In this document: piece after piece, positions 21,920 through 61,835 of the stretch | How positions within the stretch are numbered: the stretch's first letter is position 1 | How the letters are laid out: every line of letters begins with the position of its first letter | Source: an uncultured candidate division Zixibacteria bacterium | GTDB taxonomy: Bacteria; Zixibacteria; MSB-5A5; RBG-16-43-9 | Direction: 5' to 3' | NCBI GenBank assembly: GCA_963713865.1 | Contig: OY970208.1 | Span: 256,001-320,000, forward strand | DNA: 64,000 nucleotides | Translations under genes and position numbers: made by a program | The notes under the pieces: model-generated | Told to the model about the DNA's origin: nothing | The model's input: only the letters and a program-made list of their open reading frames with translations | Databases searched by the model: none

Positions 21920-22621
21920 TTATTCACCTAATATTTTATACCGCTTCAATATAAAAGGTTGGGACGTTTTAATGAGACGCCTTGGTAACTCCTCTGGGAA
22001 CATGGCCAGATGTTTCTCTTGCTTTTCGCCTGGAAAGTTCCAGTGTCCAGTAAAATATTGATTCCATTCTTCCTGGGTTAATTTCGATTGCTTTTTTATC
22101 TCATGGCTTACTTTGAGAGGTATTCCATATTTTTTGAAAACTAAAATAAACTCGTAATCCAATTTAAGAATTCCACTCCTGGGATAAGGGAACGAACCCA
22201 TTACTGTTGCACCGCCAGTTGTATGACAGGTAGTAACTTTCTGCCAGATGACAGCCCCCATATAGTCAAAACCTGCACTTTCACAAAACTTGATTATCTC
22301 AGTTCTTATTGGAATAACTTTGTATCTTCCGTAATAGACTGAACGTGCAAATTGATCTCCAATATTGATGCATAAACGACAGCCATTATGCAATACTCTG
22401 CGGCACTCATTCCAAACCAGATTAAGATTATTGATATATTCTTCATAACTGTCATTGAAACCTATCTGCTTTCCATTCCCATAATCTTTTAATTGCCAGT
22501 AGGGCGGAGATGTGATAACAAGATGAATCGACTCATCTTGAACCTCCTTCATCCACCTTGAATCACCAATAATTATCTTATGATAAGTCTTCAAGTAATT
22601 ACCTCTACGATTTTCAAACAC
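21920..22621 (-). pseudogene. Beta-class N4/N6 DNA methyltransferase, truncated before the SAM-binding FxGxG motif (likely TTG start at 22594)
   Basis: GDSR, VITSPPYW, HLAMFPEELPRRLIK are present, then the frame ends after 15 unrelated residues with no VLDPFxGxGT. Confidence 0.75.
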
Positions 22622-34288: not shown

Positions 34289-35690
34289 CTAACTTTTTTG
34301 AGCTTTTATTTTCAATATCTTTTTGGTATCCTTAGTTATTTTAAATTCATCTGCAATTCTATAGCCCAGAACCCAGAACGATTTTACCCTTTGAAGTTAA
34401 AACCAAAGCTCTTTCTTTTTCATAACGAGGAACTTTAAGATCAGTTAGAAAATCTTTTAAACTTTTTGTTCCTTTCATCCCTAATGGTTTGAACTTATCA
34501 CCAGATTCGGGATTTCTTAAACTAAAGGGAAGCTTTAACTTGCCCCAATCCAAAAACGCTGTCATCTGGTTATCGTTAAAAGGTTTTTCCTTTAAATCCT
34601 TTTTCTTGATAATCTCTGAATCTAAGCTGATTCCAAACATTTTACTCTTTTTAATCCCCGGAAAAACGACTGGTAAACCTTTCTTCTTTTTTTCAACCTG
34701 GTATATATTCAAATAATTTAAGGAGATCTCTGCCAGAAGACTTCTATTCAAAAAAATCCTTCTACCGGTCTTTTTTTTCTGGGCTAAATCTAAAATCCGC
34801 TCTACTATCTCAAAATTTGTCTTGAAAACACCACCTCCCATCTGATCAATGGCTAATCTGACCAGTTCTCTTCTAAAATAAATATCATAATTAAATAGTT
34901 TGTTTAAATCAAGCGAAATCTTCTTATCTTCTCTTTCTATAATTTTATTGAATACCTTGAAAGTTTCTTCTTTTAAAAATTTCTCTTGAGCAGATAAAAT
35001 CGAGGCTGTTCGATTCAGAGCATCCACGATCTTAGGGTTATAACTCTTTCTAAGGAGTGGTATCAGTTCCAATCTTATCCTGTTTCTAAAATAATCCTTT
35101 CTTAAATTTGAGGAATCTATCTTGAACTGTAACTTATTTTCTGATAAAAATTTTTCGATCAGCCCTCTTTTTATCTCTAAAAGAGGTCTGATAATTTTAC
35201 CGGACACAAGAGGGATACCTGATAGACCCAAACCACCTGCTCCTCGAATCAATCTCATTAAAACCGTTTCTGCCTGGTCGTCTGCATTATGCCCTAAGGC
35301 TATTTTTGTAGCCTTTATCCGATTTGCTAATTTAATTAGATAATCATATCTTATCTTCCGGGCACACTCCTCAATTGATAATTTCTCTTTCTTTGCTATC
35401 CTTTTAATATCAAAAGACTTAGAATAAAATTTTAACCTTAAATTAAGAGCTAATCGTTTTACAAACCTCTCATCTTCATCTGACTCTTTCCCTCTGAGCT
35501 TGTGGTTTATATGTGCAATAAATAATTTCAAACCATATTCCCCCTTTATCTGATTCAGGAGATTAAGCAAAGCCACAGAATCCGGACCGCCAGAACAGGC
35601 AACAATTACCCTATCCCCTTTTTTTAACATATTCCAGCGGTTAATCGTTTCTTCGAATTTTCTCAACATCACCATATACCTTAACCTCAT
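34289..35690 (-). CDS. tilS: tRNA(Ile)-lysidine synthase; apparent +1 frameshift at 34373-34379 (called ORF stops at 34359, repaired frame at 34289)
   Basis: SGGPDS, HINHKLRG, GHNADDQAET, RNRIR; removing one base restores the C-terminal IVWVLGYRIADEFKI. Confidence 0.93.
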
Positions 35691-35700
35691 ATCCCCTTGA

Positions 35701-35728
35701 AAGATAAATATTTTAGAGGAATTGTCAA
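35701..35728 (-). promoter_or_regulatory. Sigma70-type promoter TTGACA-N16-TATCTT for the tilS operon
   Basis: Consensus match immediately upstream of tilS. Confidence 0.55.
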
Positions 35729-35946
35729 ACTAAAAGGTGGCATTTTCTCAATGGAATTGTAGTAGTTCTAACAACTCCATTTCCAGGGACTGGAGTCCAA
35801 GTCCTGCCCCGGTTAAGGTTTTTTACCTGACTGATTTTTCTTGACTTTTTATAAGAAATTAAATAGGGTATAAGAAAGCTTAATCGATTCAAGATAAAAG
35901 CTTATTTATCATTCCAAGTGAATTATAATGTAAAGGAGATACTTAT

Positions 35947-36984
35947 ATGCCTAATTCAGCTCTTGAAATTATGAGAAAAGGGTTCAGTCATATTAATGAA
36001 GGGCAGTTGCTTTTAATTCTTTTGATTCTTTTTAGTTTCTTTTATATACAGACAAGTATGACCGCAGCCCCCTCATTAGAGGAAGGGAAAAAGTTATTTA
36101 AAGAGGAAAAATTCCAGGAGGCAAAAGCCGTTCTGGAACAAGTGATTAAATCAGACCCTCGAAACCACGAAGCATATTTTATCCTGGGTAAGATCTATTA
36201 CTCTGAGAAAAACTACGATAAGTCTATTGAAAATCTCGAAAAAGCAGTGGAACTTAAAGATTCAGTATCAGAATATCATCTATGGTATGGCAGCTCTTAC
36301 CTTATGAAAGCTCAAAAATCAGGTAAAATCAAAGCCTTATTTAGAGCTAAAAAAGGGGTGGGCGAGCTTGAAAAAGCCGTTAAATTAGATTCAACTGATG
36401 CTGAGGCCAGATTTAGCCTTTTTCAGTATTATCTTGTAGCTCCAGGTATTGCCGGTGGAGATAAAAAGAAAGCAGAGAAAGAGGCAAAGATAATTCAGGG
36501 CTTAAATCCCTATTTAGGTGCTCACGCCTGTGCAGCTTATTGGGAAGCTGAAAAAAATCTGGAAAAAACAGAAACCTATCTAAATGAAGCGGTGAAATTG
36601 GATACCTCCTCTACTTTCAATTCAAGATATTCCCTGGGATATTTTTTCCTGAGATATAAAAAATATGACAAGACGGTAATAGTTTTTGAGGAGATTTTAT
36701 CAAAGAATCCTGAAGAGAAGAACGCGCTTTATCAAATTGGCAAAGCTTATCTCCTCGCTCAGCATAATCTGGATAAAGCGGAGGACTGTTTCAAAAAGTA
36801 TCTGGAAACTGAACCGACCAAAAATGCACCTTCTTGGGCAGCAACTCATTGGAGATTAGGAATGGTCTATAACCTTCAGGGGAAAAAAGAATTAGCCCTG
36901 CAGGAGACGAAAAAGGCTTTAGAACTGGAACCTGACAACCAAGAATTTAAGAAAACCCTCCAGGAATTACAGAAGAAAAAATAA
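35947..36984 (+). CDS. Tetratricopeptide repeat protein, probably exported
   Basis: Multiple TPR motifs (AYFILGKIYY, ALYQIGKAYL, HWRLGMVY) after a hydrophobic N-terminal segment. Confidence 0.88.
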   Translation: MPNSALEIMRKGFSHINEGQLLLILLILFSFFYIQTSMTAAPSLEEGKKLFKEEKFQEAKAVLEQVIKSDPRNHEAYFILGKIYYSEKNYDKSIENLEKAVELKDSVSEYHLWYGSSYLMKAQKSGKIKALFRAKKGVGELEKAVKLDSTDAEARFSLFQYYLVAPGIAGGDKKKAEKEAKIIQGLNPYLGAHACAAYWEAEKNLEKTETYLNEAVKLDTSSTFNSRYSLGYFFLRYKKYDKTVIVFEEILSKNPEEKNALYQIGKAYLLAQHNLDKAEDCFKKYLETEPTKNAPSWAATHWRLGMVYNLQGKKELALQETKKALELEPDNQEFKKTLQELQKKK

Positions 36985-37192
36985 GCTTCACGGTAAAGAA
37001 CATCATACCCAGCTCAATAATTGGTGGTGACATAGATTCGAACGACTTTACATATCATATTGAGGCTGGCTTATGTTTAAGTAAGAGATTTAGCAGGGCT
37101 GGGAGCCCTGCCTAGGGGAGTTTTATATTATATTTTTAGAGAGCAAAATAATTTCTTGATAAATTTCTGCTAACTTTTAGATAATAATAACG

Positions 37193-37210
37193 TATAGATA
37201 ATTGTCTATA
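37193..37210. promoter_or_regulatory. Putative ArsR-family operator TATAGA-N6-TCTATA
   Basis: Inverted repeat just upstream of the arsR-family RBS; related palindrome at 37528-37555. Confidence 0.6.
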
Positions 37211-37224
37211 TATTAGGTGAACTT

Positions 37225-37512
37225 ATGAACGATAAATGTCAGCTAATCTTTCAAGCCCTATCCGATAAGACCCGGCAGAAGATCCTGGAGATGTTAAAGG
37301 ATAAAGAGCTCTGCGTTATGGCCATTTGCAAGCCCTTTGATATGCGCCAGCCATCAATATCTCATCACCTGAATATCTTGAAAAGGGCAGGACTGGTAAA
37401 ATGCTGCAAAAAAGGAAAGGAGGTCCATTACAAGTTAAATCAGCATGCTTTGGAGAACTGCTGTTGCTCCATTTTAACTGAATTCGACCTGAGACCCAAA
37501 AAAGCAAAATAA
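37225..37512 (+). CDS. ArsR/SmtB family metalloregulator
   Basis: FQALSDKTRQKIL, ELCV, QPSISHHLNILKRAGLV; Cys-rich (CC, CCC). Confidence 0.93.
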   Translation: MNDKCQLIFQALSDKTRQKILEMLKDKELCVMAICKPFDMRQPSISHHLNILKRAGLVKCCKKGKEVHYKLNQHALENCCCSILTEFDLRPKKAK

Positions 37513-37527
37513 TTTTTTTAACTTATT

Positions 37528-37555
37528 ATATAGATATATTTAAATATATCTATAT
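37528..37555. promoter_or_regulatory. Perfect 28-bp palindrome ATATAGATATATTTAAATATATCTATAT, putative ArsR operator
   Basis: Lies directly before the AGGAGGTG RBS of the small ORF; shares the TATAGATA half-site with 37193-37210. Confidence 0.65.
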
Positions 37556-37575
37556 TTGAAAGGAGGTGATAAGAA

Positions 37576-37752
37576 ATGTTCTGTACCTTTGGTTGTGATC
37601 CCAAGAAGTTCTCCCAGCTCTTCGAAAAGGAGATAGAGGAGACCAAAGACGGGATCATCATAAAATTAAAAGCCAGGGATAAGGAGAAAGCGGAGGCTTT
37701 GAAAAATCTCATCTCCGCTTCTAAGACCCTCTTCGGCGAAGACTGCTGCTAA
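37576..37752 (+). CDS. 58-aa Cys-containing small protein (not in ORF track)
   Basis: Strong AGGAGGTG RBS; MFCTFGCDPKKFSQLFEKEIEETKDGIIIKLKARDKEKAEALKNLISASKTLFGEDCC. Confidence 0.8.
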   Translation: MFCTFGCDPKKFSQLFEKEIEETKDGIIIKLKARDKEKAEALKNLISASKTLFGEDCC

Positions 37753-37790
37753 AGAGGAGCTGAATCTCCTATCCCCGGCAATTTTTTAAG

Positions 37791-37845
37791 GTAGGGGCGA
37801 GATAACCTCGCCCCTACCCAAGCAAGCCTAAAAGGCTCGCACTAC
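37791..37845. repeat. REP-like palindromes GTAGGGGCGAG-ataac-CTCGCCCCTAC and GCAAGCC-taaa-AGGCTCGCACTAC between convergent genes
   Basis: Hairpins with GTAG/CTAC ends, same family as 12430-12457. Confidence 0.75.
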
Positions 37846-37849
37846 GATG

Positions 37850-38506
37850 CTATTCTTTCCCTATATACTGTCTACTGCCTACTTTCTTCCCCCACATCTC
37901 TTCCGTAATCCTCATCTCTTCAAATTGCACCAGGATTTCCTCTCCCTCTTTTTTAAAATATTTTCTTATACCCTTAAAACGCTCGTCTCCGAAAACATCT
38001 ATTTTACTTCTCGGATCGTGTTTATTGAATTTAGTTCCACAGAATTCAAATCCGCATTTGAGATAACATTTTATTGCCCTACGATTCAAAGTAGCCACGT
38101 CTAAATATAGTTCCTTAAATTTCATTTTTTCAAAATAATAAGGCAGAAGGGTTTTAATCGCCTCACTCCCATACCCCTTATCAATATATTCATATCCCAG
38201 ATAAATCCCTAAATATGCCTTTTTATCCTCCCAATTAAGGTTATACAGGCTGAGAAATCCAATAAGTTCCTTTTTGAGATTATCTATGGCTAAGAAAAGC
38301 CTCCCGGGTTCTTTTTTCCTCTTTTGATACCATTCCTTTTTTTGTGCTTGAGTCATCCCTTCTATATTGTAATGAAAATACAAAGGATCAGGGTATTTTT
38401 GCCACTTCAATCTTTTATCGATATCATCCCTTCTGAGCGGACGGATTATTATTCGTTCCCCTTTGAGCTTAAAGCGGACTATTGTGAAGGATAAATTTTG
38501 GTTCAT
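37850..38506 (-). CDS. GNAT family N-acetyltransferase (RimJ/RimL-like)
   Basis: IIIRPL, LIGFLSL, YIDKGYGSEAI, NRRAIKCYLKCGF. Confidence 0.88.
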   Translation of the reverse strand: MNQNLSFTIVRFKLKGERIIIRPLRRDDIDKRLKWQKYPDPLYFHYNIEGMTQAQKKEWYQKRKKEPGRLFLAIDNLKKELIGFLSLYNLNWEDKKAYLGIYLGYEYIDKGYGSEAIKTLLPYYFEKMKFKELYLDVATLNRRAIKCYLKCGFEFCGTKFNKHDPRSKIDVFGDERFKGIRKYFKKEGEEILVQFEEMRITEEMWGKKVGSRQYIGKE

Positions 38507-38560
38507 TTACTTAAAGATTGACCCAGGTTGAGGGCAACCTGGATTTACTGTTTGTTCTTA

Positions 38561-38595
38561 TTTTCCCCTGTCTACTGTATGCTGTCTACTATCTA
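38561..38595. repeat. 7-mer array ttttccc-ctgtcta-ctgtatg-ctgtcta-ctatcta
   Basis: Near-identical to 16258-16292; a second array lies at 37861-37881. Confidence 0.75.
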
Positions 38596-38599
38596 CTTA

Positions 38600-39136
38600 C
38601 TACAGCCATCTGGACATAATTAGAAAATCCATTTTATACCAGTGCTTACGCAGATAGGCTTCGGGAACAAAACCGGAGGCTAAATAGAAACTGACGGTTG
38701 AGACCAGATAAGGTGTGGTATAAGCAAAAAGCTTATGACAACCTTTTTCTTTCGAGTAGCTTACAATCTTATTAATCAGTTCTTTGCCAATCCCTTTTCC
38801 TTGTGCTTCTAAGGCTGTGCAAATCCAGGAAAGATCCGAAATACCGCCCTGTTCAAGTCTGCCAATAGCCAGGCCGTCTATTTTCTCATTTTCTACAGCT
38901 ACAAAACCATACTTTCTTTCATCTCCGATAAACCTTAAAAAAGTATCATAAGAATAGAGTTTAAGCTCCTCCTCCAGGAGTTTTCTGGGGTAAACCTCTT
39001 TTTCATACTTCTCCCAGGTTTTTCCCCTGACCGTTCTGGAAAGCTCAATCGAGCTTTCGATATCTTCTTTTGTCATCTTTCGGACAGTCACTAAACCTCC
39101 TATAAATTCTGGAGTATAAACCTTCAGGTTTATCAA
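38600..39136 (-). CDS. GNAT family N-acetyltransferase
   Basis: QGKGIGKELI acetyl-CoA motif, FYLASGF. Confidence 0.88.
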   Translation of the reverse strand: MINLKVYTPEFIGGLVTVRKMTKEDIESSIELSRTVRGKTWEKYEKEVYPRKLLEEELKLYSYDTFLRFIGDERKYGFVAVENEKIDGLAIGRLEQGGISDLSWICTALEAQGKGIGKELINKIVSYSKEKGCHKLFAYTTPYLVSTVSFYLASGFVPEAYLRKHWYKMDFLIMSRWL

Positions 39137-39170
39137 AAAAAGAGATAAAGCTAAAGCATTATACTCCGAA

Positions 39171-39749
39171 TCAAGCCAAACCTAACTTCTTCTCCAACTC
39201 CTCAATCAGATGCAAATACTCGTGATGTTTTCCTTCACCGATAACCTCTTTTTCCACCTTTTCAAATTTCTCTTCCAAAACCTTCTGCTCTTTTTCCGGG
39301 ATATTTCTGTCTGCCATTATATAGAGGATATTATCCTTTTTGAAGATATGCGGAGCTAAAAGTCCGGTGTAACCTCTGGTATTCTCAATTATATCTTTAA
39401 TAGATGATTTGTCCCCTTTTTCATGTTTCTCAGCTGCCTCTGCTAAACCTTTGACGAAATTTCTACCTAAGGTATGCTCATATAACATAACCCCCAGAGG
39501 ACCCCCCTCTCTGGGAATCCCGTATTTCTCCATCATCGGGAAAAGGGTCTCCTCTTCTTTGCCATGATGACATCTATCTGCAAAATTGCGGATGAAAGAA
39601 ACCGCTTTCTTGAAGACTACCACTGGAACATCTTTACCTTCCTCTAAATTTTGTGAGGCTTTTTCCAAAACTTTCAGCATCTTTAAAATAACCTTATGCT
39701 CTTCTTTTAATTCCTCTGTAGGTTTCACAATTGAACCTCTTCTTTTCAT
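39171..39749 (-). CDS. Hemerythrin/HHE cation-binding domain protein
   Basis: LKEEH, DRCHHGKEEETLFP, MLYEH, HIFKKDNILY. Confidence 0.88.
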   Translation of the reverse strand: MKRRGSIVKPTEELKEEHKVILKMLKVLEKASQNLEEGKDVPVVVFKKAVSFIRNFADRCHHGKEEETLFPMMEKYGIPREGGPLGVMLYEHTLGRNFVKGLAEAAEKHEKGDKSSIKDIIENTRGYTGLLAPHIFKKDNILYIMADRNIPEKEQKVLEEKFEKVEKEVIGEGKHHEYLHLIEELEKKLGLA

Positions 39750-39784
39750 AATATGGAGTATAAAACTTTAGTTTTATCTTATTC

Positions 39785-39892
39785 GTAAGCCTAAAGGGCT
39801 ACACTCCAGATTTAAGTAATTATCTTTTTTGTCAAGAAGCCCTCCGGACATGCTTGACTTACTTTGTTTGCATTAGCAAGCTAATGCACTCC
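39785..39892. repeat. Two GGAG-type REP-like hairpins (39785-39807 and 39870-39892)
   Basis: Reverse complements GGAGTGTAGCCC-ttt-AGGCTTAC and GGAGTGCATTAGC-tt-GCTAATGC; related copy at 51103-51125. Confidence 0.6.
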
Positions 39893-39919
39893 TATAACCT
39901 ACTACCTATGATCTATTAC

Positions 39920-41237
39920 CTAAATTTTCCATATCCTTTTATTCAAAATCCTAACCAGTTCATCAATCTTCACCCTTATCTGTTCCATCGAATCTCTTTC
40001 CCTCAAGGTCACGGTCTCGTCCTGCAAAGTCTGAGAGTCAACGGTTATGCCAAAAGGTGTTCCTGCCTCATCCTGCCTTCTATATCTTCTGCCAATGGCA
40101 CCGCCTTCGTCATAAAAAACTTTAAAATGAGGCCTCAATATATCCTCGATCTTCTTTGCCACCTCTGGCATATTATCTCTTTTAACCAAAGGATAAATCC
40201 CGGCTTTGATTGGAGCAATTTTAGGGTCTAATCTCAGGACCGTTCTCTCCTCACCTTTGACCACCTCTTCATAGTAACCATCCACCAAACAGACCAGCAT
40301 AGTGCGGTCTACCCCGGCTGAGGTTTCGATGATATAAGGGATAAATCTTTCTTTGGTCTGGTCATTGTAATAGGAAAGGTCTTTACCAGTTACCTGGGTA
40401 TGTTCTGGAAAGGTCATAATCAGTGCGGTTATGAATCCCCTCTATCTCTTTCCAGTCAAAGGGGAAATTATATTCTATGTCATAAGCGGTCTTAGCATAG
40501 AAAGCTAATTCTTTTTTATCATGCTGATGAAACCTTAAATTCTCTTTTTTTATACCCAGGTTTAGATACCATTTCATCCTCTCCTCTTTCCAGTATTCGA
40601 TCCATTTCTCATCTTCATCTGGATGGATGAAAAACTGCATTTCCATCTGCTCGAATTCACGCGAGCGGAAGATGAAATTTCCCGGAGAGATCTCATTCCT
40701 GAAAGCCTTCCCTATCTGGGCGATTCCAAAAGGGAGTTTTTGCCTGGAAGGGGCTAAGACGTTTAAAAAATTAACATAGATACCCTGAGCAGTTTCCGGG
40801 CGAAGATAGACTCCAGAAGCTTCATCCTCTACCGGTCCCATGTGTGTTTTGAACATCAGGTTGAACTGCCGTGCTTCAGTCAGCTCTCCTCCACAGTTAG
40901 GACATTTATTGCCAGATACCTCATCTGCCCTGAACCTCATCTTGCAGTTTTTGCAGTCAACCATCGGGTCTGCAAAAGACTCCACGTGACCTGAGGTTAT
41001 CCAGACCGAAGGATGCATTAAAATCGAGGCATCCAGCCCTTCGATATCATCCCGGAACTGGGTCATACTTTTCCACCAGTTCTGTTTGATATTATTTTTA
41101 AGCTCAACCCCTAAAGGGCCATAATCCCAGCAGCTATTAATCCCACCATAGATTTCACTGGACTGAAAGATGAAACCTTTTCTTTTACACAAAGAGACCA
41201 ATTTATCCATCAAATCTTGATTCTTTTTATTTGACAC
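39920..41237 (-). CDS. glyQS: Glycine--tRNA ligase (homodimeric alpha2 type); apparent +1 frameshift at 40402-40408 splits it into two ORFs
   Basis: [36 protein letters not shown], then [12 protein letters not shown] and [14 protein letters not shown] in the other frame. Confidence 0.95.
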
Positions 41238-41311
41238 CTTGCCTCCTGTCCTATCATCCTGTGGATCCCTTACGGGACAGTTCTATTTCCAAAGTAACAA
41301 TATTAATCTGA

Positions 41312-42067
41312 TTAATCCTCTAATCGTCTTATAAACTCCAGGGTTTTCAAATCCTTGGCCCCGGTATGATAACGAACAAAGCTTTTAACTAAATCTTCGA
41401 TCTCTTTTAAACTTCCCTTATCTACGGGGATTTTATCGATTTTGTTAATGTCCAGGGATAGAAGTTGTTCTGGCAGAAAGATAGGCTTTTCGACCGAGTT
41501 TAAGATAATATTCCTCTTCTCTGGTACAGTGGTGACAAATAACCCCGCCTCTTTCCGGGCTCAGGAAAACCTCTTCTTCTTTTATCTCCTTCCCACACCT
41601 TACGCAGGTATCCAGTCTAGGCTTATACCCTAAATTTGAAAAAAGCTTCAGGGCAAAACCCCAGAAGATTTTCTCTAAATCTGATTCATCCATACTTTCC
41701 ATCCGCGATAAAGTTTTCAGGCTTAAATTGAAAATCCTCTGGTTAGGCTCTTCACCGCTTATCAATTGATCCAAAAGCTCAGTCACAGCTGATGCCCAGG
41801 AAAAACGATTGAGGCTTTTGCCTAAACCCGAAAAATTCTTCAGGGTTTCCCCTGAAGATAGAAGATGAAGTTCACTTTTCTCCCTTTTGTAGAATACTAT
41901 CTCGGATAACGAAAAATATCCCAGGGGAGGGGTTCTGCTTTTTCTTCTTTTTATCCCCTTGGCTAACAGCTTTATCTTCCCGAAATCTCTGGTATAAAGG
42001 GTAAAAATGTTCGAGGAATCACCGTACTTCAAGCTCTTTAAAACTATCCCTTCGGTCTTGACCAGAC

Positions 42068-42071
<4 letters not shown>
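41312..42071 (-). CDS. recO: DNA repair protein RecO; apparent +1 frameshift at 41467-41473 (called ORF stops at 41445)
   Basis: KTEGIVL, TLYTRDFGKI..LAKG, CxxC...CxxC; repaired frame adds QLLSLD...FVRYHTG..DLKTLEFI. Confidence 0.9.
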
Positions 42072-43806
<1,735 letters not shown>

Positions 43807-44179
43807 CTAAATCTAAAGCTTAAAAATACTTTTGCAATAGAAAAATTCAGGGGGGCGTGGAAATTTATTCATATTATTTTTATCAGGTAAGACGATAATG
43901 AATTAACCAAACTCTCCAGGACCCAGGAAAACCCAACCCAAATTAAAATAAATTTGAAGCAGGGGTGGGCGGGGTAGCATCCCCCAACCCCTATCTGTCT
44001 GTAATTTGACCCGCCAGAGGGAATCTACATAGGATTGTTGGCAGAGATTTTACTTGAACGAGTTTCCAACCTCACAGGGTGTCGAAATATTTTCAGGTTG
44101 TAAACTAAAATGGATATGCCATATAGACCTATCCCTTGCTAAGAGGTGCTTCTTCTACCTATCGAATGATAGCTCCTTT

Positions 44180-46433
44180 TCAACACGTTGGTGGTGGTCC
44201 ACCCTTGAACAGATAATTGATCAAATAGACTATATCTGCAACAGTTACATCGCCATCACAATTTGCGTCTCCTGCTTCAATTGAGTTAGGTTCAGGACCT
44301 CCTTTGAAAAGGTAGTTTATTGTGTATACAACATCAGACACAGTTATCTTTTCATCTCCATTGACATCGCCGCGTAAGAAAACATGGAAACTCCAGGTCT
44401 GAGTTGACCAGGTTTCTCCACCCCGCATGTCGTATCCTTTAACCTTCCAGAAATATGAGCCCGTATTAAGAGTATCTGAATGATTACTTACAGGGAGGTT
44501 TCCATGAATGATTGTGGAATCTGGATGAAAGTTCAATGATGGGCTTATATGTAGACTGTATCTAACCGTATCCCCAGCATCGGGGTCAGTGGCATTTGCC
44601 CAATCAAAGGCCAGAGCCGCAGTAACAAAAGCACTATCTTCAGGTAACAGTAGTGAAAATAAACTTGGAGGAGTATTCGGACTACTCTTCAGTTCGTCGG
44701 AGCTTATGATAGAGTAATGCTGAACCGACGCCAGAGTTCCTTTGTGATTCACGGTCAAAACATATTGGCCAGCAGGCGGAGAGGCCACATAGATTTGCTC
44801 CACATTGTCTCTAATATTGTCACCAGTGCTCGCAGCACCACCAGGATTGCCAGGGTTCAGTACATAAGGCAGGTAGATAGTGGAAGTGGCTATGTGTTCC
44901 AGCCTGAGATCCAGGTCGTTCACGAGCATAAGAGTGGTGGGATTCAGTGAGGGAGGAGGAGGAGTCCCTGGAGGGTCAGTCCAAGCCAAGGTGATGCGAA
45001 TCGGCTCAGACCCGTAACTATAGAAATAATAATTATTGAATTGTTCATTGCTCAAGCTGTCTTCAGCGATTAGTCCTTGCTCCGCGGAGTTTTGTTGAAT
45101 TAACTTGGCAGCTTTTAAGGTATTCATTAAACCCCAGCCAAACATGTAGTCCGGACCTGTATTAGGACCTGCCTCATCGGCTGTATGTATAAGGAGCGCT
45201 TTCATAGTTGATGACCGGGGTGTCGTATCTGCATGGGATGCTTCATAGTAACGTACCAGAAGATTAAGGGAACCAGATAAATTGGGCGTGCTCGCCGAAG
45301 TTCCAATATAATCTGAATACGAACTATTACTGGAACTGGCACAAGAATAAAGATAAATACCGTTAGTAACTAAATCGGGCTTGATCCTGCCATCATCCGT
45401 AGGTCCCCAACTACTAAAAGAGCTCATCACTACACCTCTAGGTTCAGTGTAACCATCTGGGATGTCAGATACCGCACCAACGGTGATTGTATTCTTTGAG
45501 TTACCTCTATGCGAAAGACAATCGTATCCGTCTGTTCCTCCATCCGGATCACGAGTATCAGTGCTCCACACCCAGCTCCCACTATAGGGATCCCACACAT
45601 AATGCCCCCCATCTGGTCCAGGTCCAGATTGACTTCGGTCATTACCAGCTGCTATGACAATAGTGTAATAAGGGGCATTATAGGCAATTTGGTCCCATTC
45701 TTGGGCAGCAGAGCTATAAAAGCCAAAGTAATAATCCTCAGTAGTGCTGATGGTAATGTTTCCCCACCAATACCAATTTTCACTAGAATGATGCCATCCT
45801 GTGGCAATACCGTAGGAATGATTCGAGACGTTCATCCCTGAAACAGCCGCTGAAGCCATTTCTGACTCGTCGTAATTCCAATCATAAGCTGCTAGTCTGC
45901 CCTGAAAAGACATTCCTTTTGCTGCACCATCTACTCCTGCAGCCACCATAGTCCCGGCAACGTGTGTCGCATGTCCACTCGTACCGCTTGAGCTATCCAT
46001 CTGAGTCACCCGGCCACCAAACTCCTGGTGAGTTGTGAGCACACCACCACCATCCCATATTCCAAGCTCTCCCAATAAAGTTGCTGAGCCACTAAGAGAC
46101 AATCCACCACTCCCTCCAAGCCAGAACATCGTCCGTACTGATAGTTTTCGCTGCATTTAGGTTGTCCACTGCATAGTACACTGGATAACCTCTGTCGTCT
46201 ATATACATGAGCTGAATATTCGGATCCATGTTCAGCTGCTTCTGAGGTACTGCATCGCTTTTGAGCAAATCGTAGTACAGCTTGGAACGGCGAGCATCTA
46301 ATTGTTCTCGAAAAACTTGACTTAATTCCTTAAGTTTGGCTACTTGCGTAACTTGTTGCCTATCTGTGAATGCACTTGCCGTTAAACAAAAAACTAAGTA
46401 CAGGACAACGAAAATGATAAATTTTTTTGACAC
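44180..46433 (-). CDS. Secreted S8 serine protease with C-terminal dockerin; apparent +1 frameshift at 46121-46127 separates signal/propeptide (46092..46433) from the rest (44180..46156)
   Basis: WDGG, GHATHVAG, GTSASTP triad; GRIKPD; RGDVNGD...GDANCDG dockerin; repaired junction reads AAKTISTDDVWLGGSGGLSL. Confidence 0.88.
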
Positions 46434-46879
46434 ATTGTTCTCTCTCTGAAAGTTATTACTGTTTAAGTACGATATCCATCACTCTAATTAAAAATAACCC
46501 AAAACCAAAAAAAGTCAATCAAAATCAACTCGTTAGGGCATATCCTCCTTTCTTGTCTTTCTCTAATTGGATATGTCCTTTCTACTTACCTAAATCAACT
46601 AAAATTTACACAAAAGAATTTATATAATAACTAAAGGGTGAAAGAACACTTTAGCTAATTTTTTTAGAGCTTGGAAGCTCAAAGCTGTCAAAAATGAGTT
46701 CCAGAATCTACTAAAGCTTGAGATTTGAAGACTTATGGGAATTAAAAACCTGGAGGTAGTTGACGAGTTTAGCACTTTCCTTATTCAAAATTCCAAGTTT
46801 TCTTCGCAACCCATCTAAACCCGACCTGAATTTAAACAAAAGTTCGCACTTGGAAGCTAAGCCATTCTAAAACAGGAGA

Positions 46880-47728
46880 CTAATTCCCACCAATTTTTCG
46901 CAAGAGAAAAAATAAAATAACCCCGGAAATCGAGGATAGAAAATTGACCCAGTCGTTATTCAGCCAGGAAATCCCGGAGACTCTTTTTGTTTCCAATCCA
47001 CAATGAGCCTTTTTTTCCGTTATCTTATGACAAACCGGACATAGATATTGAGCCTGAAGATATGCACCCAGAAGACTATCGATAAGAGAGCCTGAAAAGC
47101 CAGCTAAAATTATTATTAAGAAAGCATTCAATCTTAAAGGAAAAGGAGAGACTCCTGGAATAAATCCGCTCAAAACCAGGAAGAAAGAGCCACAAAAAGA
47201 GCTTATAGTGCCTAAAAGACTTATTCCACCAGAACTCCCCGGAGAGACTCTCTTAAAACTTTTTAGAGATAAAGGTGCAGAAGGAGATAGAATCCCTATT
47301 TCTGTCCCCCAGGTATCAGCAGTTACTGCGGCTAAAGAAGACAGATAGGCAGAGTAAATGGAGGAAGATGGAAATAAGAGATAAATAAAACAAAGAATCC
47401 CGGCTAAACTGCCATTAGCTAACACCTGATTTTTATCCCTGGCTCCAGTTTTCTCAAAAATTGTTTTGTATTCTGTTTTCTTCCCCTGTTTATATTTTGA
47501 AAGTAAACTGGATGAAAAAAAGAAAAAAAGTAAAGGCAAGGCAAAAGTGACCCCTCCTGTTCCAAAGATGATACTGCCTAAAAGAAAAGCAGATAAAGCC
47601 CCGTCCAGGGTTAGAAGTTTAAATCTGTAAGCTAAAATAGAGACCAGATCGCTTAAAGCTGTGCCTGAGATTAGCTGGAGTAAAAGTCTCAAGATCATAA
47701 AAGCTGAAATCTTTTCCTGAAAAACCAC
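46880..47728 (-). CDS. DUF92 family membrane protein
   Basis: R...QVLANG, ADTWGTEIG, PGSSGGISLLG, DSLLGA.LQ, NDWVNF. Confidence 0.9.
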   Translation of the reverse strand: MVFQEKISAFMILRLLLQLISGTALSDLVSILAYRFKLLTLDGALSAFLLGSIIFGTGGVTFALPLLFFFFSSSLLSKYKQGKKTEYKTIFEKTGARDKNQVLANGSLAGILCFIYLLFPSSSIYSAYLSSLAAVTADTWGTEIGILSPSAPLSLKSFKRVSPGSSGGISLLGTISSFCGSFFLVLSGFIPGVSPFPLRLNAFLIIILAGFSGSLIDSLLGAYLQAQYLCPVCHKITEKKAHCGLETKRVSGISWLNNDWVNFLSSISGVILFFLLRKIGGN

Positions 47729-49851
47729 TCTAAGGACAAAAAGAATATAAAAAAGAATAAAAGTAGCGGTTTATCCCAGAGGGTTATCTCTCTTATCTTA
47801 AGCCTGGGCTTTTTCTCCAGATCCAGCCTTTTTAGAAGCGATGCAAAATCTTCAGGCTCAGAATAATCTCCTCCGGAAAGCAGGGCAATCTCTTTAAGAA
47901 GCTCTTTGTCTGGCTTTAAATCCTCATCCTCTAAACTTACATCCTCGATCTCAAATTTACCTGAATAACTTCCCAGAATAAACTCCTCCTTTCTGGCTTC
48001 TCCTTTGAAGAGATATTCTCCTGGAGGCAAAAAAGAAAGAGTATAGTAATAATCGCCATCTTCAGGCATAAGGTTGAAAAGCAGTGAATCGGCTTCTTTC
48101 CCTTTTGGATAAACCTTTATTTTTATCTCTGCCCCTTTGATCTTTTGATAACTTTCATCGAAAACTCGGGAATTAAATTTTATCTCCTCACCTCTTTTAT
48201 AGACTGCTTTGTCCGTATAGATTTTAAACCTCTCCAGATCTTCTCGGGATAGAAGCCATCTGAAGGAGTTCTCCCAGAATTTTTTATAGGCTGAATTATC
48301 TTCCTTAACCCCCCAGAGCAAAAAATCCCATTTCCATAAAGGGGATAAGCCCAGGACCTCTATTTTTCCCTTTTCCAATTCCCTGATTATTATTGCGGGC
48401 AAACTCTCCTCCCCTGTTTTAACCAGTGTCAGTACCTTAGCTCCGTTTTTTTCTTTGAGGGGTATAATCATCTCAAAAGGAGGAAGATTTGTCCAGAGAA
48501 AAAGATTTTCCTCTAACTCTTCTGAAAGCTGGGTTAAGGGATGAAATTCCCCCTCCGGTGAAAGGCTCAAGATGAAATTCTGAAACAGAGGTTTCTTTTC
48601 TTTTATTATCTCAAAGGGAAGGAAATCAAAACCACTTAATATCTCTTTCCTTTTGTAGAACTCTTCACCCACTAAGAGCAAAAACGAAATTCCTTTTTTC
48701 TGCAAAAGGTTTTTAATTTCTTTTTGATTTTGTATTAAAAATTGAGGGGAATCCAGAACGATTAAAAGGTCAAAATCTTCAATCTTTTTACTCTGGGAAA
48801 GTTCTGGCAAAAGAGGTTTTCCGGATTTTGAGAAGACCAGAGTCTCAAAAGTTATGTCTTTGTTTAGATTTAATAACCTTTTGAGGAAGCTGAATTCCCA
48901 GTTCAAGCTCTGGCTTACTAAAAGAAGATTGAACCTTTTCTTGAGAACTTTCTGGGTGAAGCTTTTAAGGTTATTCTGCTGAAAACTTTCCCCTTCTACT
49001 TTAGGGATTACCACCTGGTATCTATGTATCCCCTCCTCTTCTGGTTCAAATACCAGTTCAGTTTCCTGGAGCTCGCCTGAGATATTAAATGACAATTCTT
49101 TGCGAGCTAAAACTTTTTTATTCTCCTGCAGAAGAACAGGAATTTTAACCCCTTTATATCCCTGATTTTTTATAGTAACTTTAATGGTATCATTCTCTCC
49201 AGAATAGGTGATCTCATCATATTTAACTTTTTCTAAGCTCAAATCCTTAAAAGGCACAAACTCACCTATGCCTACCGTATAGACAGGCATAGTATAATTT
49301 CGAGCAACAGCTATAGGGTCTTTCCCGGAATTATTAGTTCCATCGCTGAAAAGAATTACCGTGGAAAACTCTTTGCCCCTTGAATTCTCTTTGAGCTTTT
49401 CCAAATTATTTCCGATTGAAGTGGCTTCACCTGAAAAAACAGGTAGCTTCCCGGAAAGATTATAGGGAACTATACTATCAGAAAAAAGGTAAGAGGAAAT
49501 TTCCGCTTTTGATAAGACCTCTTTAAAACTTTTCTCCGCTAAAAGATTTTGCAGGACCTCTTTTCTGGTAATAGCCTTATCTTTTATATTCATACTCCTG
49601 GATGAATCCAAGAGTAAAGCAATCTTGGGCTTCTCCCAGGATTTTTTTGCTACCCCCAGTAAAGCTTCACCTAAAGCTAAAAAAAGGCTTATAAGAGCCA
49701 GCCACCTTAAAACTAAAAGCAAAACTTTCCTCCTGGCTTTAAGAGGTGGTAATGTAAAACGATAGGAAAGAAAAGCTAGGACCAAGGCAACTGCAAAGAT
49801 GAAGATAAGCAGAATTATATTGGGGGTTTGAAAATCTATCCACAGTTTCAA
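47695..49851 (-). CDS. Membrane-anchored VWA-domain protein with Ig-like and GATase-like domains
   Basis: N-terminal TMs, DSSRS MIDAS motif, FSDG..N, LWKW, C-terminal LSLEWFFRK. Confidence 0.75.
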   Translation of the reverse strand: MKLWIDFQTPNIILLIFIFAVALVLAFLSYRFTLPPLKARRKVLLLVLRWLALISLFLALGEALLGVAKKSWEKPKIALLLDSSRSMNIKDKAITRKEVLQNLLAEKSFKEVLSKAEISSYLFSDSIVPYNLSGKLPVFSGEATSIGNNLEKLKENSRGKEFSTVILFSDGTNNSGKDPIAVARNYTMPVYTVGIGEFVPFKDLSLEKVKYDEITYSGENDTIKVTIKNQGYKGVKIPVLLQENKKVLARKELSFNISGELQETELVFEPEEEGIHRYQVVIPKVEGESFQQNNLKSFTQKVLKKRFNLLLVSQSLNWEFSFLKRLLNLNKDITFETLVFSKSGKPLLPELSQSKKIEDFDLLIVLDSPQFLIQNQKEIKNLLQKKGISFLLLVGEEFYKRKEILSGFDFLPFEIIKEKKPLFQNFILSLSPEGEFHPLTQLSEELEENLFLWTNLPPFEMIIPLKEKNGAKVLTLVKTGEESLPAIIIRELEKGKIEVLGLSPLWKWDFLLWGVKEDNSAYKKFWENSFRWLLSREDLERFKIYTDKAVYKRGEEIKFNSRVFDESYQKIKGAEIKIKVYPKGKEADSLLFNLMPEDGDYYYTLSFLPPGEYLFKGEARKEEFILGSYSGKFEIEDVSLEDEDLKPDKELLKEIALLSGGDYSEPEDFASLLKRLDLEKKPRLKIREITLWDKPLLLFFFIFFLSLEWFFRKRFQLL

Positions 49852-49951
49852 GGAAACCCTTCTTTCTGATCCTCTATACCTTTCTTTTGGATAAAAAAAC
49901 CACTGCCGAAAACATCTACAGTGGCCGGTTGCAGATCCCTATTACAGAAAT

Positions 49952-50926
49952 CTATTTCTCACGGGTCAAGATGAAATCAACTAATTTCTCCAACGCTTCT
50001 TTATATTCGGTTGGATTTAATTCGGAGATTAATTCTAAAGCTTCATTGCCAAAATCCTGGGCTCTTTTTAAGCTGTATTCCACACCGCCTTCTTTTTGGA
50101 CAAAGGAGCAGATCTGAGAGAAATGTTCTGGCTTATATCCTTCTTCTAAGATTTTCATTATTTTATCACGGGTTCCATCCTCTGAGTTAGCCAGGGTATA
50201 GATCAGGGGTAAGGTGATCTTACCTTCTTGTAGGTCATTCCCCAATTCTTTTCCGGTTTTCTCCTTATCACCTACTAAATCTAAAAGGTCATCGATTATC
50301 TGAAAAGACATGCCAAAACCCTCACCAAACCTCTGGTAGATATACTGAGTTTTTTCATCCAAACCCCTGGCAATCGCTCCAGACCCGCAGGCAACGGAGA
50401 AAAGAGAAGCAGTCTTATCTGTTATAATCTTAAGATATACTCTCTCCGTCAAATTGTAATTTCCTCGCTCCTGAATCTGCAGAAGCTCCCCCAGGCTAAT
50501 ACTCTCAGTAGCTTTAGAAACAGCTTTAAGGAGTGGAGTAAGTCCGGTTTGAACCAAGATCTTAAATGACTTTGCTAATAGATAATCACCCATCAGGACT
50601 GAGACTAAATTACTCCAGCGATAATTCACTGAGGCTTTTCCCCTGCGGGTAGTAGATTGATCGATAACATCATCATGCAGTAAGGTTGCAGTATGAATCA
50701 ACTCTATGGCTACGGCTGCATCTAAAGCATTATCTTTATTAGAACTATTAGTCTCGCCAAAGCTCAGAAGAACCAAAGCTGGCCTGAGTCTTTTCCCTTT
50801 TCGCTCCAGAAGATACTGAGCCACCTGAAAAATCAAAGGTGAATCTGAAGAAAGATATTCTTCTAACTTTTGTTCCACCTTATCTAAATCAGCTTTTATC
50901 AGCGAAAGGATCGAATCCAGACTCAT
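49952..50926 (-). CDS. Polyprenyl diphosphate synthase (IspB-like)
   Basis: GKRLRP, LHDDVID...RRG, KTASL, FQIIDDLLD. Confidence 0.93.
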   Translation of the reverse strand: MSLDSILSLIKADLDKVEQKLEEYLSSDSPLIFQVAQYLLERKGKRLRPALVLLSFGETNSSNKDNALDAAVAIELIHTATLLHDDVIDQSTTRRGKASVNYRWSNLVSVLMGDYLLAKSFKILVQTGLTPLLKAVSKATESISLGELLQIQERGNYNLTERVYLKIITDKTASLFSVACGSGAIARGLDEKTQYIYQRFGEGFGMSFQIIDDLLDLVGDKEKTGKELGNDLQEGKITLPLIYTLANSEDGTRDKIMKILEEGYKPEHFSQICSFVQKEGGVEYSLKRAQDFGNEALELISELNPTEYKEALEKLVDFILTREK

Positions 50927-51102
50927 TGCTAAATTTATGATTATCCCATCAAGTCCTAAACCGGATGGCAGAAGGAGATCTTAAAATTTTTGACACAACT
51001 GAAATTTTCCGAAAAACTCCTTCCAATTTTGAATAAAATACCATCTCCTTTTCAGATTGTCAAACGAAAATTATAGCTGATTTTTAATTTTTGTATGCTT
51101 TT

Positions 51103-51211
51103 GGAGTGTGCACCTTTAGGTTTACCAGTTTTTCGTAGGGTAACTCTCAAGATCCATTCTGGACCTTCAGGGTTGCTTCTTTTTTTCGCAAGGCTAAAGC
51201 CTTGCCCTACG
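51103..51211. repeat. REP-like cluster: GGAG hairpin (51103-51125) and GTAGGG...GCAAGGC-taaa-GCCTTGCCCTAC doublet (51134-51211)
   Basis: CGTAGGG/CCCTACG terminal inverted repeat with internal hairpins. Confidence 0.7.
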
Positions 51212-51235
51212 ATTAATACTCTATCAACTTTTGAA

Positions 51236-51721
51236 TTATCTTTTAACCCCAAATTTATTCTTCAACTTTTTTACTACAATCTCCGGTACGAAACGACTTA
51301 TCTCGCCTTTGTTACGAGCGATCTCTTTGATCAAAGTTGAGCTTAAATAGGTATATTTCTCGCTGGGCATTAGAAATACCGTCTCGGTCTCAGGGGCTAA
51401 TTTACGGTTCATCAAAGCCATCTGAAACTCATATTCGAAATCCGAAATCGCTCTCAAACCTCGAATTATTACCACCGCTTTACTCTTAGAGACAAAATCC
51501 GCTAAAAGTCCAGAAAAAAGCTGAGCCTTCACACCTTTTATACCCTTAATACTTTCCTGCACCATCTTCAATCTATCCTGAGCTGAGAAAAGCGTTGCTT
51601 TATTAGGTTTAGAGGTAACTGCAACTATCAATTCATCAAATAAATTCGTAGCCCTCTGGATTAAATCTAAGTGTCCATTGGTAATTGGATCAAAAGTCCC
51701 GGCATAGATCGCCTTTTTCAT
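51236..51721 (-). CDS. coaD: Pantetheine-phosphate adenylyltransferase
   Basis: GTFDPITNGH, RGLRAISDFEYE, LSSTLIKE. Confidence 0.97.
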   Translation of the reverse strand: MKKAIYAGTFDPITNGHLDLIQRATNLFDELIVAVTSKPNKATLFSAQDRLKMVQESIKGIKGVKAQLFSGLLADFVSKSKAVVIIRGLRAISDFEYEFQMALMNRKLAPETETVFLMPSEKYTYLSSTLIKEIARNKGEISRFVPEIVVKKLKNKFGVKR

Positions 51722-52314
51722 AAAAGCTCCTTTTTACCATTAATAGGTTTTTTCTTAAAAAAGGAAATCAGGGTATCCCCATATTTTCTCTTTTGAAGTA
51801 ACAAGAAATCTTTTTTTTCTTCTATCTTTTCTTTTTTATGATGCTCCATCACCAGAATCCCGTCTGCATTTAAAAAACTCTTCTCCGCTAAAATCCCTAA
51901 TAATTTCTGGCAGAGTCCTTTTCCATAAGGAGGGTCAGCTAAGATAAGATCGAATCCGCCAGAGGTGATTTCATTTTCGCTTCTGAGAAATCTGAGAATG
52001 TCTTTTTTAACCATCTTACCTTTATTTTCAAATCCAAGCTTTTTCAGGTTTTTTCGGGTAAGGTTTAAACTGGCAGAAGAATTATCCACAAAAACAACTT
52101 CTTCTGCTCCTCTGGACAAAGCCTCAAGCCCCAAAGCACCGCTTCCTGCAAAAAGGTCCAAAACTTTCTTCCCTTCCAGCAGTTGCCCGAATTCTAATCC
52201 ATAGGACAGGATATTAAAAATCGCTCCTTTGACCTTATCTGAGGTAGGTCTGATCTCTCTTCTCTTTAAAGAGAAGAGCTTTTCCCCTTTTTTCTCACCA
52301 GAGATAACTCGCAA
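51718..52314 (-). CDS. rsmD: 16S rRNA m2G966 methyltransferase
   Basis: MRVISG, RPTSDKVK, LDLFAGSG.LGLEALSRGA, DPPY. Confidence 0.95.
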   Translation of the reverse strand: MRVISGEKKGEKLFSLKRREIRPTSDKVKGAIFNILSYGLEFGQLLEGKKVLDLFAGSGALGLEALSRGAEEVVFVDNSSASLNLTRKNLKKLGFENKGKMVKKDILRFLRSENEITSGGFDLILADPPYGKGLCQKLLGILAEKSFLNADGILVMEHHKKEKIEEKKDFLLLQKRKYGDTLISFFKKKPINGKKELL

Positions 52315-52330
52315 GTTTTATCCTCTTAGA

Positions 52331-52741
52331 TTATTCTACAGTGATAAGGTTCTTGAACTTCTCAAGGGTTTTAGGTCCGATTCCTTTTACATTTACAATC
52401 TCATCTATTGTAGAAAAATTACCCTTATTCTCCCGAAACTCTAAAATCCTCTTACCTAATTCTGGACCGATTCCAGGTAGAGATTCGAGCTCTTTTAGCG
52501 TCGCGGTATTGAGGTTAACCTTCCTACCCGGGATTTTCAAATCTATATTATCAGAAATAGCAGAACTTTTTACCGGCTCAAAAATTTTCTTTTGTTCTGG
52601 AAAATTGTTCTCTATCAATAGCTCCGGGGCAAAATCAGGATGATACTTTTTATAGATAGTTACACTGCTTCCTATTAAAAGTACCGCTATAAGAAAGATT
52701 ATGGTTTTTGATTCCTGTGGGGTAAAGCTAAAAAAATCCAT
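52331..52741 (-). CDS. comEA: ComEA-family helix-hairpin-helix DNA-binding protein
   Basis: N-terminal TM, VNLNTAT..EL..LPGIG, VKGIGPK. Confidence 0.85.
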   Translation of the reverse strand: MDFFSFTPQESKTIIFLIAVLLIGSSVTIYKKYHPDFAPELLIENNFPEQKKIFEPVKSSAISDNIDLKIPGRKVNLNTATLKELESLPGIGPELGKRILEFRENKGNFSTIDEIVNVKGIGPKTLEKFKNLITVE

Positions 52742-52747
52742 TTTATT

Positions 52748-53657
52748 TTAATCGTAAAGAACCTTGAGTAAAACTTTTCCCACCTTCTCCAGACTTTCCG
52801 GACTGCACTTGTCCGGGGTGTCCTGCAGGGTATGCCAGTAAGGATAATCGAAGTCGATTAAGTCTATACAGGGTATCCCGGCCTGGATCAAAAAAAGATG
52901 GTCATCTATTACATAGTGTTTCACTTCCGGTCTGAAATTTGAGAGCGAGAGCTTCACTGCTTTTTCCCAAACCAGCCCAACAATATCTTTGGCATATCTA
53001 TTGGAATAACCCTCTTTATAGATCTGTAAGTCTTTATCTCCTATCATATCCAGTAAAATGCCAAACGATGCCTTGTATTCTCCCAAGTTCCGGGAAAAGT
53101 AATTTGAGCCCAGAACACCACCTGTCTGGATGTTCCTCTGAGCCAAAGTCCTCCCCATCGAAAAAGACAATATCCACACCATACTTGGGCTTTTTCTTAG
53201 AAATTATAGTAGCTAATTCCATAAGAACTGCTACTCCGGAAGCTCCGTCATTTGCTCCCAGGATCGGGGTTGAATTATTTACAGAATCAGGATCTTTATC
53301 TGCCCACGGTCTGGTATCCCAATGAGCACATAAAAGGACTCTTTCTTTTTCATCAGGATAAAAAGAGACGATTATATTGCTCAACTCCAATCTTAAATTC
53401 TCAGTAGTATCCTCCCATATAAAATCCTGCGATTTAACTAAGTTAATATATGCGGAAAAGAAGTCAAGCAGATACTTTTTCAAAGCTTGATGCCCGTAAG
53501 AGCCTGGATCTCTGGGACCAAACTGGCATTGTACTTTAAGATATTGATACGCCCTTTCTCCTTTAAATTCAAAATGAGGATTAGAAGAACAGTTAAACCC
53601 GACTAAAAGGCAGAAAAGGAAAAAACCTAAGCTTAATCTATATCTTTTAATGTTCAT
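52748..53657 (-). CDS. M28 family peptidase/glutaminyl cyclase-like lipoprotein; apparent +1 frameshift at 53110-53116
   Basis: AHWDTRP, GANDGASG, FDGED in one frame; LLDMIG, DDH, YWHT..DT in the other; repaired junction reads RWCLGSNYFS. Confidence 0.88.
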
Positions 53658-61589: not shown

Positions 61590-61835
61590 TTAAGTCATTA
61601 CCTCCTCCACCGGTTCAATAGTAAGACTGGACTCTCCTACTTTCTTTAACCCCACAATCCTTCTGGTCAAGAAGTTCTGGTCTTTAAGCCACTCCTTGGA
61701 GATAGAAAGGACCTCCTCCTCCGGAAGGTCTGAGACCCAGGCAAGGGTTATGCGATTTATATGTTTTTCGTTTCCTTTAACTACGTTTTCGGATACTAAA
61801 ATATTGGACATATTCAGTGTGAATTTGACTTTCAT
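61590..61835 (-). CDS. Hypothetical protein, 81 aa (ATG 61835 preferred over 61922)
   Basis: AAAGGA RBS before MKVKFTLNM; protein-like composition. Confidence 0.6.
   Translation of the reverse strand: MKVKFTLNMSNILVSENVVKGNEKHINRITLAWVSDLPEEEVLSISKEWLKDQNFLTRRIVGLKKVGESSLTIEPVEEVMT

Follow-up and report, generated by a model that had tools for sequence, protein, structure and literature searches.

Why are five genes in one stretch of an otherwise clean bacterial genome each broken by a single base, and each at the same seven-letter word? The stretch, hereafter the window, comprises 64,000 nucleotides (bases 256001-320000) of the single 2,723,046-bp contig that represents an uncultured candidate division Zixibacteria bacterium (genome G000; GC content ~40%, completeness score 94.16%), and it contains zero N. 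The genes are tilS, glyQS (coding for GlyRS), recO, an S8 protease-dockerin gene and an M28 peptidase gene. A first-pass annotation of the window had placed all five frameshifts on CCAGAAC or its complement GTTCTGG, with one base too many, and had proposed a modified CCAGAC as the true sequence. The explanation that we favour, and consider probable, is that a spurious extra A arose in a long-read single-contig metagenome assembly, most likely as the reflection of an adenine modification in CCAGAC.

Five genes of the window are broken at CCAGAAC

CCAGAAC or GTTCTGG is present at all five frameshift coordinates. The window contains the word 26 times; dinucleotide shuffles predict 6.07 occurrences, and none of 100 shuffled sequences came to 26. 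Removal of one A joins two open reading frames (ORFs) at 5 of the 26 sites, exactly the five named above (fused frames of 450+29, 292+161, 201+52, 117+648 and 184+122 amino acids, aa). Of the remaining 21 sites, 19 are enclosed by an unbroken open frame of 138 aa or more, and those at 61674 and 63769 fall in frames of 115 and 118 aa. The five genes are all encoded by the minus strand; the motif itself is on the plus strand at three sites and on the minus strand at two. The coding strand thus reads CCAGAAC in two genes and GTTCTGG in three, as had been stated before.

The sites were compared with relatives, among them two congeners (G001 and G002) as well as G005 and G006; G029, another single-contig genome of the same order, served as a control for the genome-wide counts below. 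In tilS (motif on the plus strand at 34373..34379, gene on the minus strand with its upstream piece at 34359-35690) G001 and G006 read CCCAGAACCCAG-AC, i.e. CCAGAC. A one-base gap in the motif, with the relative in frame, was found at 3 of 3 relatives' loci, and the Pfam domain TilS_C is cut short at the ORF end. Directly upstream, at 34366..34372, the plus strand carries a genuine CCAGAAC, which is ungapped in G001 and serves as an internal control without the error.

In glyQS the motif lies on the minus strand at 40402..40408 and separates the minus-strand pieces 40383-41237 and 39920-40417; without the extra base the codons read TCC AGA CAT (S-R-H). In all nine related genomes compared (9/9) one base is missing from GTTCTGG, and the codons there give Ser-Arg-His. 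According to Pfam, the catalytic core and the anticodon domain of GlyRS fall in separate ORFs. When the N-terminal piece (284 aa) was compared with metagenome relatives, the match stopped at residue 276-282, i.e. at the break, in 80 of 80. The junction pentapeptide could be located in the longest ORFs of 37 of these 80 loci, and 33 of the 37 have Arg-His. DNA of the same species was not found among the 80 loci retrieved with the GlyRS piece as the query, the best reaching 83% protein identity. A search of sequencing runs returned no run with at least half of the sampled words; soil and sediment metagenomes came closest with a share of 0.16, which is no evidence of the habitat.

The three other genes show the same picture. 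In recO (motif on the minus strand at 41467..41473, gene on the minus strand with its upstream piece at 41445-42071, fusion 201+52 aa) a one-base gap with the relative in frame was found at 7 of 7 relatives' loci, and RecO_C is cut at profile position 112 of 157. The S8 protease-dockerin gene carries the motif on the plus strand at 46121..46127, between the minus-strand pieces 46092-46433 and 44180-46156, and the Peptidase_S8 profile begins at position 46 in the downstream piece. The congeners lack a DNA homologue of this gene. G005 encodes its N-terminal piece and S8 part in a single frame (TISTDDVWPGG), and the site there reads GAC GTC TGG (V-W). In the M28 peptidase gene (motif on the plus strand at 53110..53116, minus-strand pieces 53034-53657 and 52748-53182) the Pfam profile is split exactly at position 69, with 1-69 in one piece and 69-192 in the other, and 3 of 3 relatives show the one-base gap and are in frame.

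Coordinates, ORF fusions, Pfam splits and in-frame relatives therefore all confirm that the five frameshifts sit on CCAGAAC/GTTCTGG and have one base too many. The repaired junctions DLSRHTQVTGK and TDDVWLGG of the first-pass annotation also agree with the ORF ends. Judged by these comparisons, the five genes are intact in the organism, and the frameshifts are an artefact, not biology.

The motif marks frameshifts throughout the genome

The junction test was extended to the whole genome: one A was removed at each occurrence of the word, and the sites were counted where this fuses two open frames, each 100 aa or longer. This happened at 57 of the 671 CCAGAAC sites (8.5%) versus 0-1% of the sites of 17 control words put through the same test (0-7 matches each; e.g. 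CCAGAAG 5/863, TCAGAAC 1/397, CCGGAAC 1/361 and CCAGAC 7/1186). Together with the count in the window, this rules out chance. With looser thresholds the number rose to 75 sites (flanks of at least 75 aa) or 98 sites (flanks of at least 50 aa). The tested single-base variants of CCAGAAC were all at background. The genome-wide enrichment among frameshifts, named in advance as a check on the proposal, is thus strong.

The same word emerged when no motif was given. In a blind 7-mer enrichment over 319 insertion-type junction windows CCAGAAC came first, with 57 observed versus 3.33 expected, and the runners-up were words overlapping it. The 310 deletion-type junctions, where one base is missing, yielded only the ATGA start/stop overlaps of ordinary neighbouring genes. 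Among 22 single-base insertion derivatives of CCAGAC, CCAGAAC alone was enriched (75/671, 11.2%, with flanks of at least 75 aa; the others reached at most 2.5%), and genome-wide no one-base deletion derivative of CCAGAC was enriched at junctions. All six letters are needed, and only the duplication of the fifth letter occurs.

The excess over the controls amounts to ~81 sites (flanks of at least 50 aa; 98/671 versus 157/6153). This is a lower bound, because the count misses sites outside coding sequence or at the ends of genes, as well as genes with two hits. Some hundred copies of CCAGAC, spread over the whole chromosome, carry a superfluous A in the assembly. Compared with 1186 unaffected CCAGAC, at least ~6% of the true sites are affected; the effect is partial, as had been suspected from the window.

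In the first 400 kb of G029, CCAGAAC was found at junctions once versus 1.38 expected; the corresponding numbers for the first 400 kb of G000 are 10 versus 0.54. This part of G029 contains 6200 N and has ~2.5 times as many frame-junction windows per Mb as G000, with no single dominant word. G029 is 74% complete and has a GC content of 52.7%.

The true sequence is CCAGAC with its second A doubled

To establish the sequence behind the error, 69 CCAGAAC sites in 8 regions, namely the window and 7 regions picked for holding junction sites, were aligned to G001 and G002; the affected fraction in these regions is biased because of the way in which the 7 were picked. Sixty of the 69 sites could be aligned: 20 with a one-base gap in the motif, 1 ambiguous and 39 ungapped. 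At all 20 gapped sites (20/20) the error is a one-base insertion. The relative reads CCAGAC at 10 of them, CCAGGC at 3, CCAGAT at 3, and CCAGAA, CCAAAC, TCAAAC and CTAAAC at 1 each; CAGAAC or CCGAAC was never read at any of the 20. Ten exact CCAGAC out of 20 is about the retention of a 6-mer that is expected at roughly 88% identity. Together with the invariant Arg-His of GlyRS this establishes that the true word is CCAGAC and that its A is doubled. The relatives' sequences and the same Arg-His rule out CAGAAC (with its C doubled), CCGAAC and CCAGAA as the true word.

The 94,697 aligned bases contain 17 uncompensated single-base insertions at the motif and 40 uncompensated single-base indels off the motif (19 extra and 21 missing bases). 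Half of the latter (20/40) have no spanning open frame of at least 100 aa. The others mostly adjoin an A/T run or fall in the upstream portion of a stop-to-stop frame, an assignment that was made for the group and not indel by indel.

Some loci are hit more than once. At a serine-palmitoyltransferase locus the gene breaks at 1199951 and 1201223 of G000 are both CCAGAAC sites, where G001 reads CCAG-AC and CCAGG-C. A gene with a PglZ domain (1570324-1571895) has three one-base insertions compared with G001, in which it is an open frame of 548 aa. Two of them are motif insertions, at 1571473 and 1571551, only 78 bases apart, and neither is in the junction count. The third, at 1570894, is an extra A outside the motif (GAGAAATG versus GAGAATG).

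Edges and orientation of the motif

No base is preferred before the motif (p=0.69). At 75 affected sites genome-wide the following base is A in.40, C in.35, G in.15 and T in.11; after unaffected CCAGAC it is A in.20, C in.40, G in.11 and T in.30. The difference is modest (p=2.5e-5). The rule of a purine following the motif, which had been read from the five window sites, holds for these five and fails genome-wide, where C is common and T disfavoured. A longer or bipartite motif was rejected, since from position -15 to +20 only the effect at +1 was significant; two borderline flanking positions (p=0.0025 and 0.005) were lost on correction for ~30 tests.

The 59 motif occurrences at junctions are in sense orientation to the coding strand in 19 cases and in antisense orientation in 40. 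This mixed orientation means that the effect arises in the DNA or its consensus and excludes a ribosomal or transcriptional signal, as had been argued from the window. Programmed ribosomal frameshifting and transcriptional slippage were accordingly rejected: the orientation is not fixed, and the orthologues are in frame without the extra base. A replichore effect was not seen either, with a leading:lagging ratio of 36:39 for affected sites versus 538:648 for CCAGAC (p=0.72). The cumulative GC skew of G000 does not follow a simple two-arm pattern; it has a local trough at ~0.75 Mb, a maximum at ~1.9 Mb and a minimum at ~2.7 Mb. Between 2.0 and 2.5 Mb the affected motif is found 10 times on the plus strand and 0 times on the minus strand.

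Origin of the extra base

In the explanation that we favour, the organism would modify the adenine of CCAGAC on that strand only, because the complement GTCTGG has no A. The mark would likely be N6-methyladenine (m6A), and either a Type IIG fused restriction-methylase or a Type III Mod would set it. The extra A would then appear in reads from the modified strand and be absent from those of its partner. The consensus would flip at a subset of sites only, less often where T follows than where A, C or G does, and the fifth base of CCAGAC would be written twice, giving CCAGAAC at the minority of true sites estimated above. The sharp six-letter, one-strand specificity has the character of an enzyme recognition site. 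Of the interpretation given in the first-pass annotation, the artefact at the level of DNA or consensus, the asymmetric hexamer and the true CCAGAC thus stand; the purine rule and, as discussed below, the BREX option do not.

Errors of a related kind have been described. According to PMC10687267, untrained DNA modifications lead to motif-specific systematic nanopore errors, with GCAGC and GCTGG as error motifs in Oxford Nanopore consensus sequences of Listeria. PMC11610603 describes modification-linked nanopore errors as substitutions restricted to one strand. As in these cases, one short motif recurs genome-wide in our assembly and can be recovered from the errors alone. In these studies the errors are lineage-specific and tied to methyltransferase or defence systems. 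The published errors, however, are substitutions; here we see solely a one-base insertion at a minority of sites. There is also a resemblance to the homopolymer-length errors of long-read assemblies, which likewise over-call a repeated letter by one base and lead to frameshifts and split genes. Unlike these, the true run here is a single A, the full six-letter context is needed, and A/T runs are not enriched at coding junctions. A literature search did not find CCAGAC as a methylation motif among the matches listed, which were unrelated and mostly primer sequences. The passages of PMC11649196 that were consulted contained nothing specific on motif-linked insertion errors, though the supplementary files of the cited papers may list modification errors of the indel type.

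Several points weigh against an adenine modification as the cause. We infer the modification of CCAGAC, its chemistry, the enzyme and the strand-split mechanism from the consensus sequence. A pure insertion signature is atypical, as PMC10687267 gives mismatches as the modification-mediated errors and explicitly excludes indels as their source. The penetrance is low (~81 or more affected versus 1186 unaffected CCAGAC). The affected sites favour the plus strand of the contig by 48:27 (binomial p=0.028 against the CCAGAC background), which is weak and unexplained. G029 is a weak control, its sequencing platform being unknown. At least 8 genes of the DNA methylase type are present in G000, none of which can be linked to CCAGAC, and the mod gene of its Type III system is broken without the motif (see below).

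Some of these points would suit a base-caller or polisher bias independent of any modification, by which the k-mer CCAGAC is miscalled as CCAGAAC whatever the organism: the modification is putative, the penetrance is low and depends on the next base, and the published errors are mismatches, not insertions. Such a bias should hardly produce the sharp six-base edges, with single-base variants at background and the preceding base irrelevant, which are unlike a pore k-mer effect. The assembly junctions also show no other enriched error word and no homopolymer signature, and G029 from the same order lacks the enrichment, weak as this control is. We therefore regard a modification-independent bias as unlikely, although it deserves to be taken seriously. 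The insertion in place of a mismatch and the partial penetrance might also suit an unusual or sub-stoichiometric mark on CCAGAC other than m6A, such as a bulkier adenine adduct, a backbone phosphorothioate or a deazapurine, that disturbs the read-out. Phosphorothioation is indeed partial. Yet the DndC/SspD profile TIGR03183, which would point to Dnd/Ssp phosphorothioation, has 0 matches in G000, the candidate enzymes carry ordinary gamma-class adenine methylase domains, and nothing speaks positively for any exotic pathway, so that a non-m6A mark seems improbable. In the more particular form of a bulky or hypermodified adenine made by or with a Type IIG enzyme, an unusual mark on CCAGAC is hardly more than a long shot.

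Finally, the extra base could be real in the DNA, as a mutational hotspot or a recoding signal, with the genes either broken or decoded by frameshifting. Nothing beyond the assembly itself speaks for this. It would require some 80 or more broken genes including glyQS, tilS and recO, the 19 sense and 40 antisense sites exclude ribosomal and transcriptional slippage, and every relative examined is in frame without the base. A real extra base is exceedingly improbable.

Consequences for the genome

Owing to the artefact, roughly a hundred genes are falsely split in an otherwise clean closed genome, among them glyQS, tilS, recO and one of the organism's own restriction-methylase genes. This lowers the completeness estimate (94.16%), and downstream scans will report pseudogenes, split genes and novel small ORFs that do not exist. 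A simple correction rule follows: where two frames join, CCAGAAC should be tested against CCAGAC. If an adenine modification is indeed the cause, the errors by themselves would disclose that an uncultured lineage methylates a six-base word, CCAGAC, on a single strand, with the enzyme narrowed to few genes, and the error would be of an insertion type as compared with the substitution type described so far. If the mark were an unusual one, the read-out of two As would make it the first new DNA modification of the phylum to be traced from sequence alone. The finding adds a case with an unusual insertion signature to a known class of sequencing artefacts; its value lies mainly in the correction of the genome and in the putative methylation motif.

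Candidate modification enzymes

CCAGAC resembles the sites of Type IIG (MmeI/Eco57I-like), Type III and BREX adenine methylases, as it is an asymmetric six-base word with an adenine next to the 3' end and none on the complement; since GTCTGG lacks adenine, only one strand can carry m6A at this position. MmeI recognizes TCCRAC, EcoP15I CAGCAG and BREX TAGGAG. Fused nuclease-methylase genes as in Type IIG systems are present in G000, and methylation of CCAGAC by one of their products would fit. The search for a candidate methylase locus, which the first-pass annotation had recommended, thus yielded adenine methylase genes of both Type IIG and Type III.

Domains of the Eco57I/N6_Mtase/MmeI_Mtase kind occur in two large genes. 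Type IIG A (395484-398139 of the genome) combines three parts: an HSDR_N/MmeI_N nuclease, a gamma-class adenine methylase (Eco57I/N6_Mtase) and, for specificity, a TaqI_C domain. Among solved structures it comes closest to adenine-N6 methylases, one of which is a BrxX of BREX. This candidate maker of the mark is itself split by CCAGAAC, at 395903. Type IIG B (719425-722574, 1050 aa) shares its type of methylase core with A and neighbours a PAS/GAF histidine kinase. The Type III mod and res pair lies at 2683779-2687999, with the ResIII-type res after mod. A break near 2684606-2684624 divides mod into two frames, at a place with no CCAGAAC and no obvious homopolymer; this may be a real pseudogene or another error.

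The BREX-like option of the first-pass annotation found no support. The sole PglZ match of G000 (1571024-1571443, in the gene whose homologue in G001 is the 548-aa frame) does not lie beside the Eco57I-type genes at 395-398 kb or 719-723 kb. The gene at 1246853-1247725 scores on Eco57I/N6_Mtase and was rejected as a DNA methylase, being a PrmC-like protein methyltransferase according to Pfam.

Besides the Type III mod, the N6_N4-type methylases of G000 include a fusion with an Mrr-like nuclease, a gene next to a BanI-type nuclease, and small ones. A small N6_N4 methylase at 1921348-1922120 is split at a TTT run that seems to be one T short, a deletion-type event unlike the motif insertions. 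The window itself holds an N6_N4 methylase-type frame of 236 aa on the minus strand (21962-22528), which covers only profile positions 1-178 of 221 and may be truncated. At 1422683-1425524 the methylase beside the BanI-type nuclease, of 619 aa, adjoins a full-length restriction enzyme (Pfam RE_BanI, E=6.7e-129).

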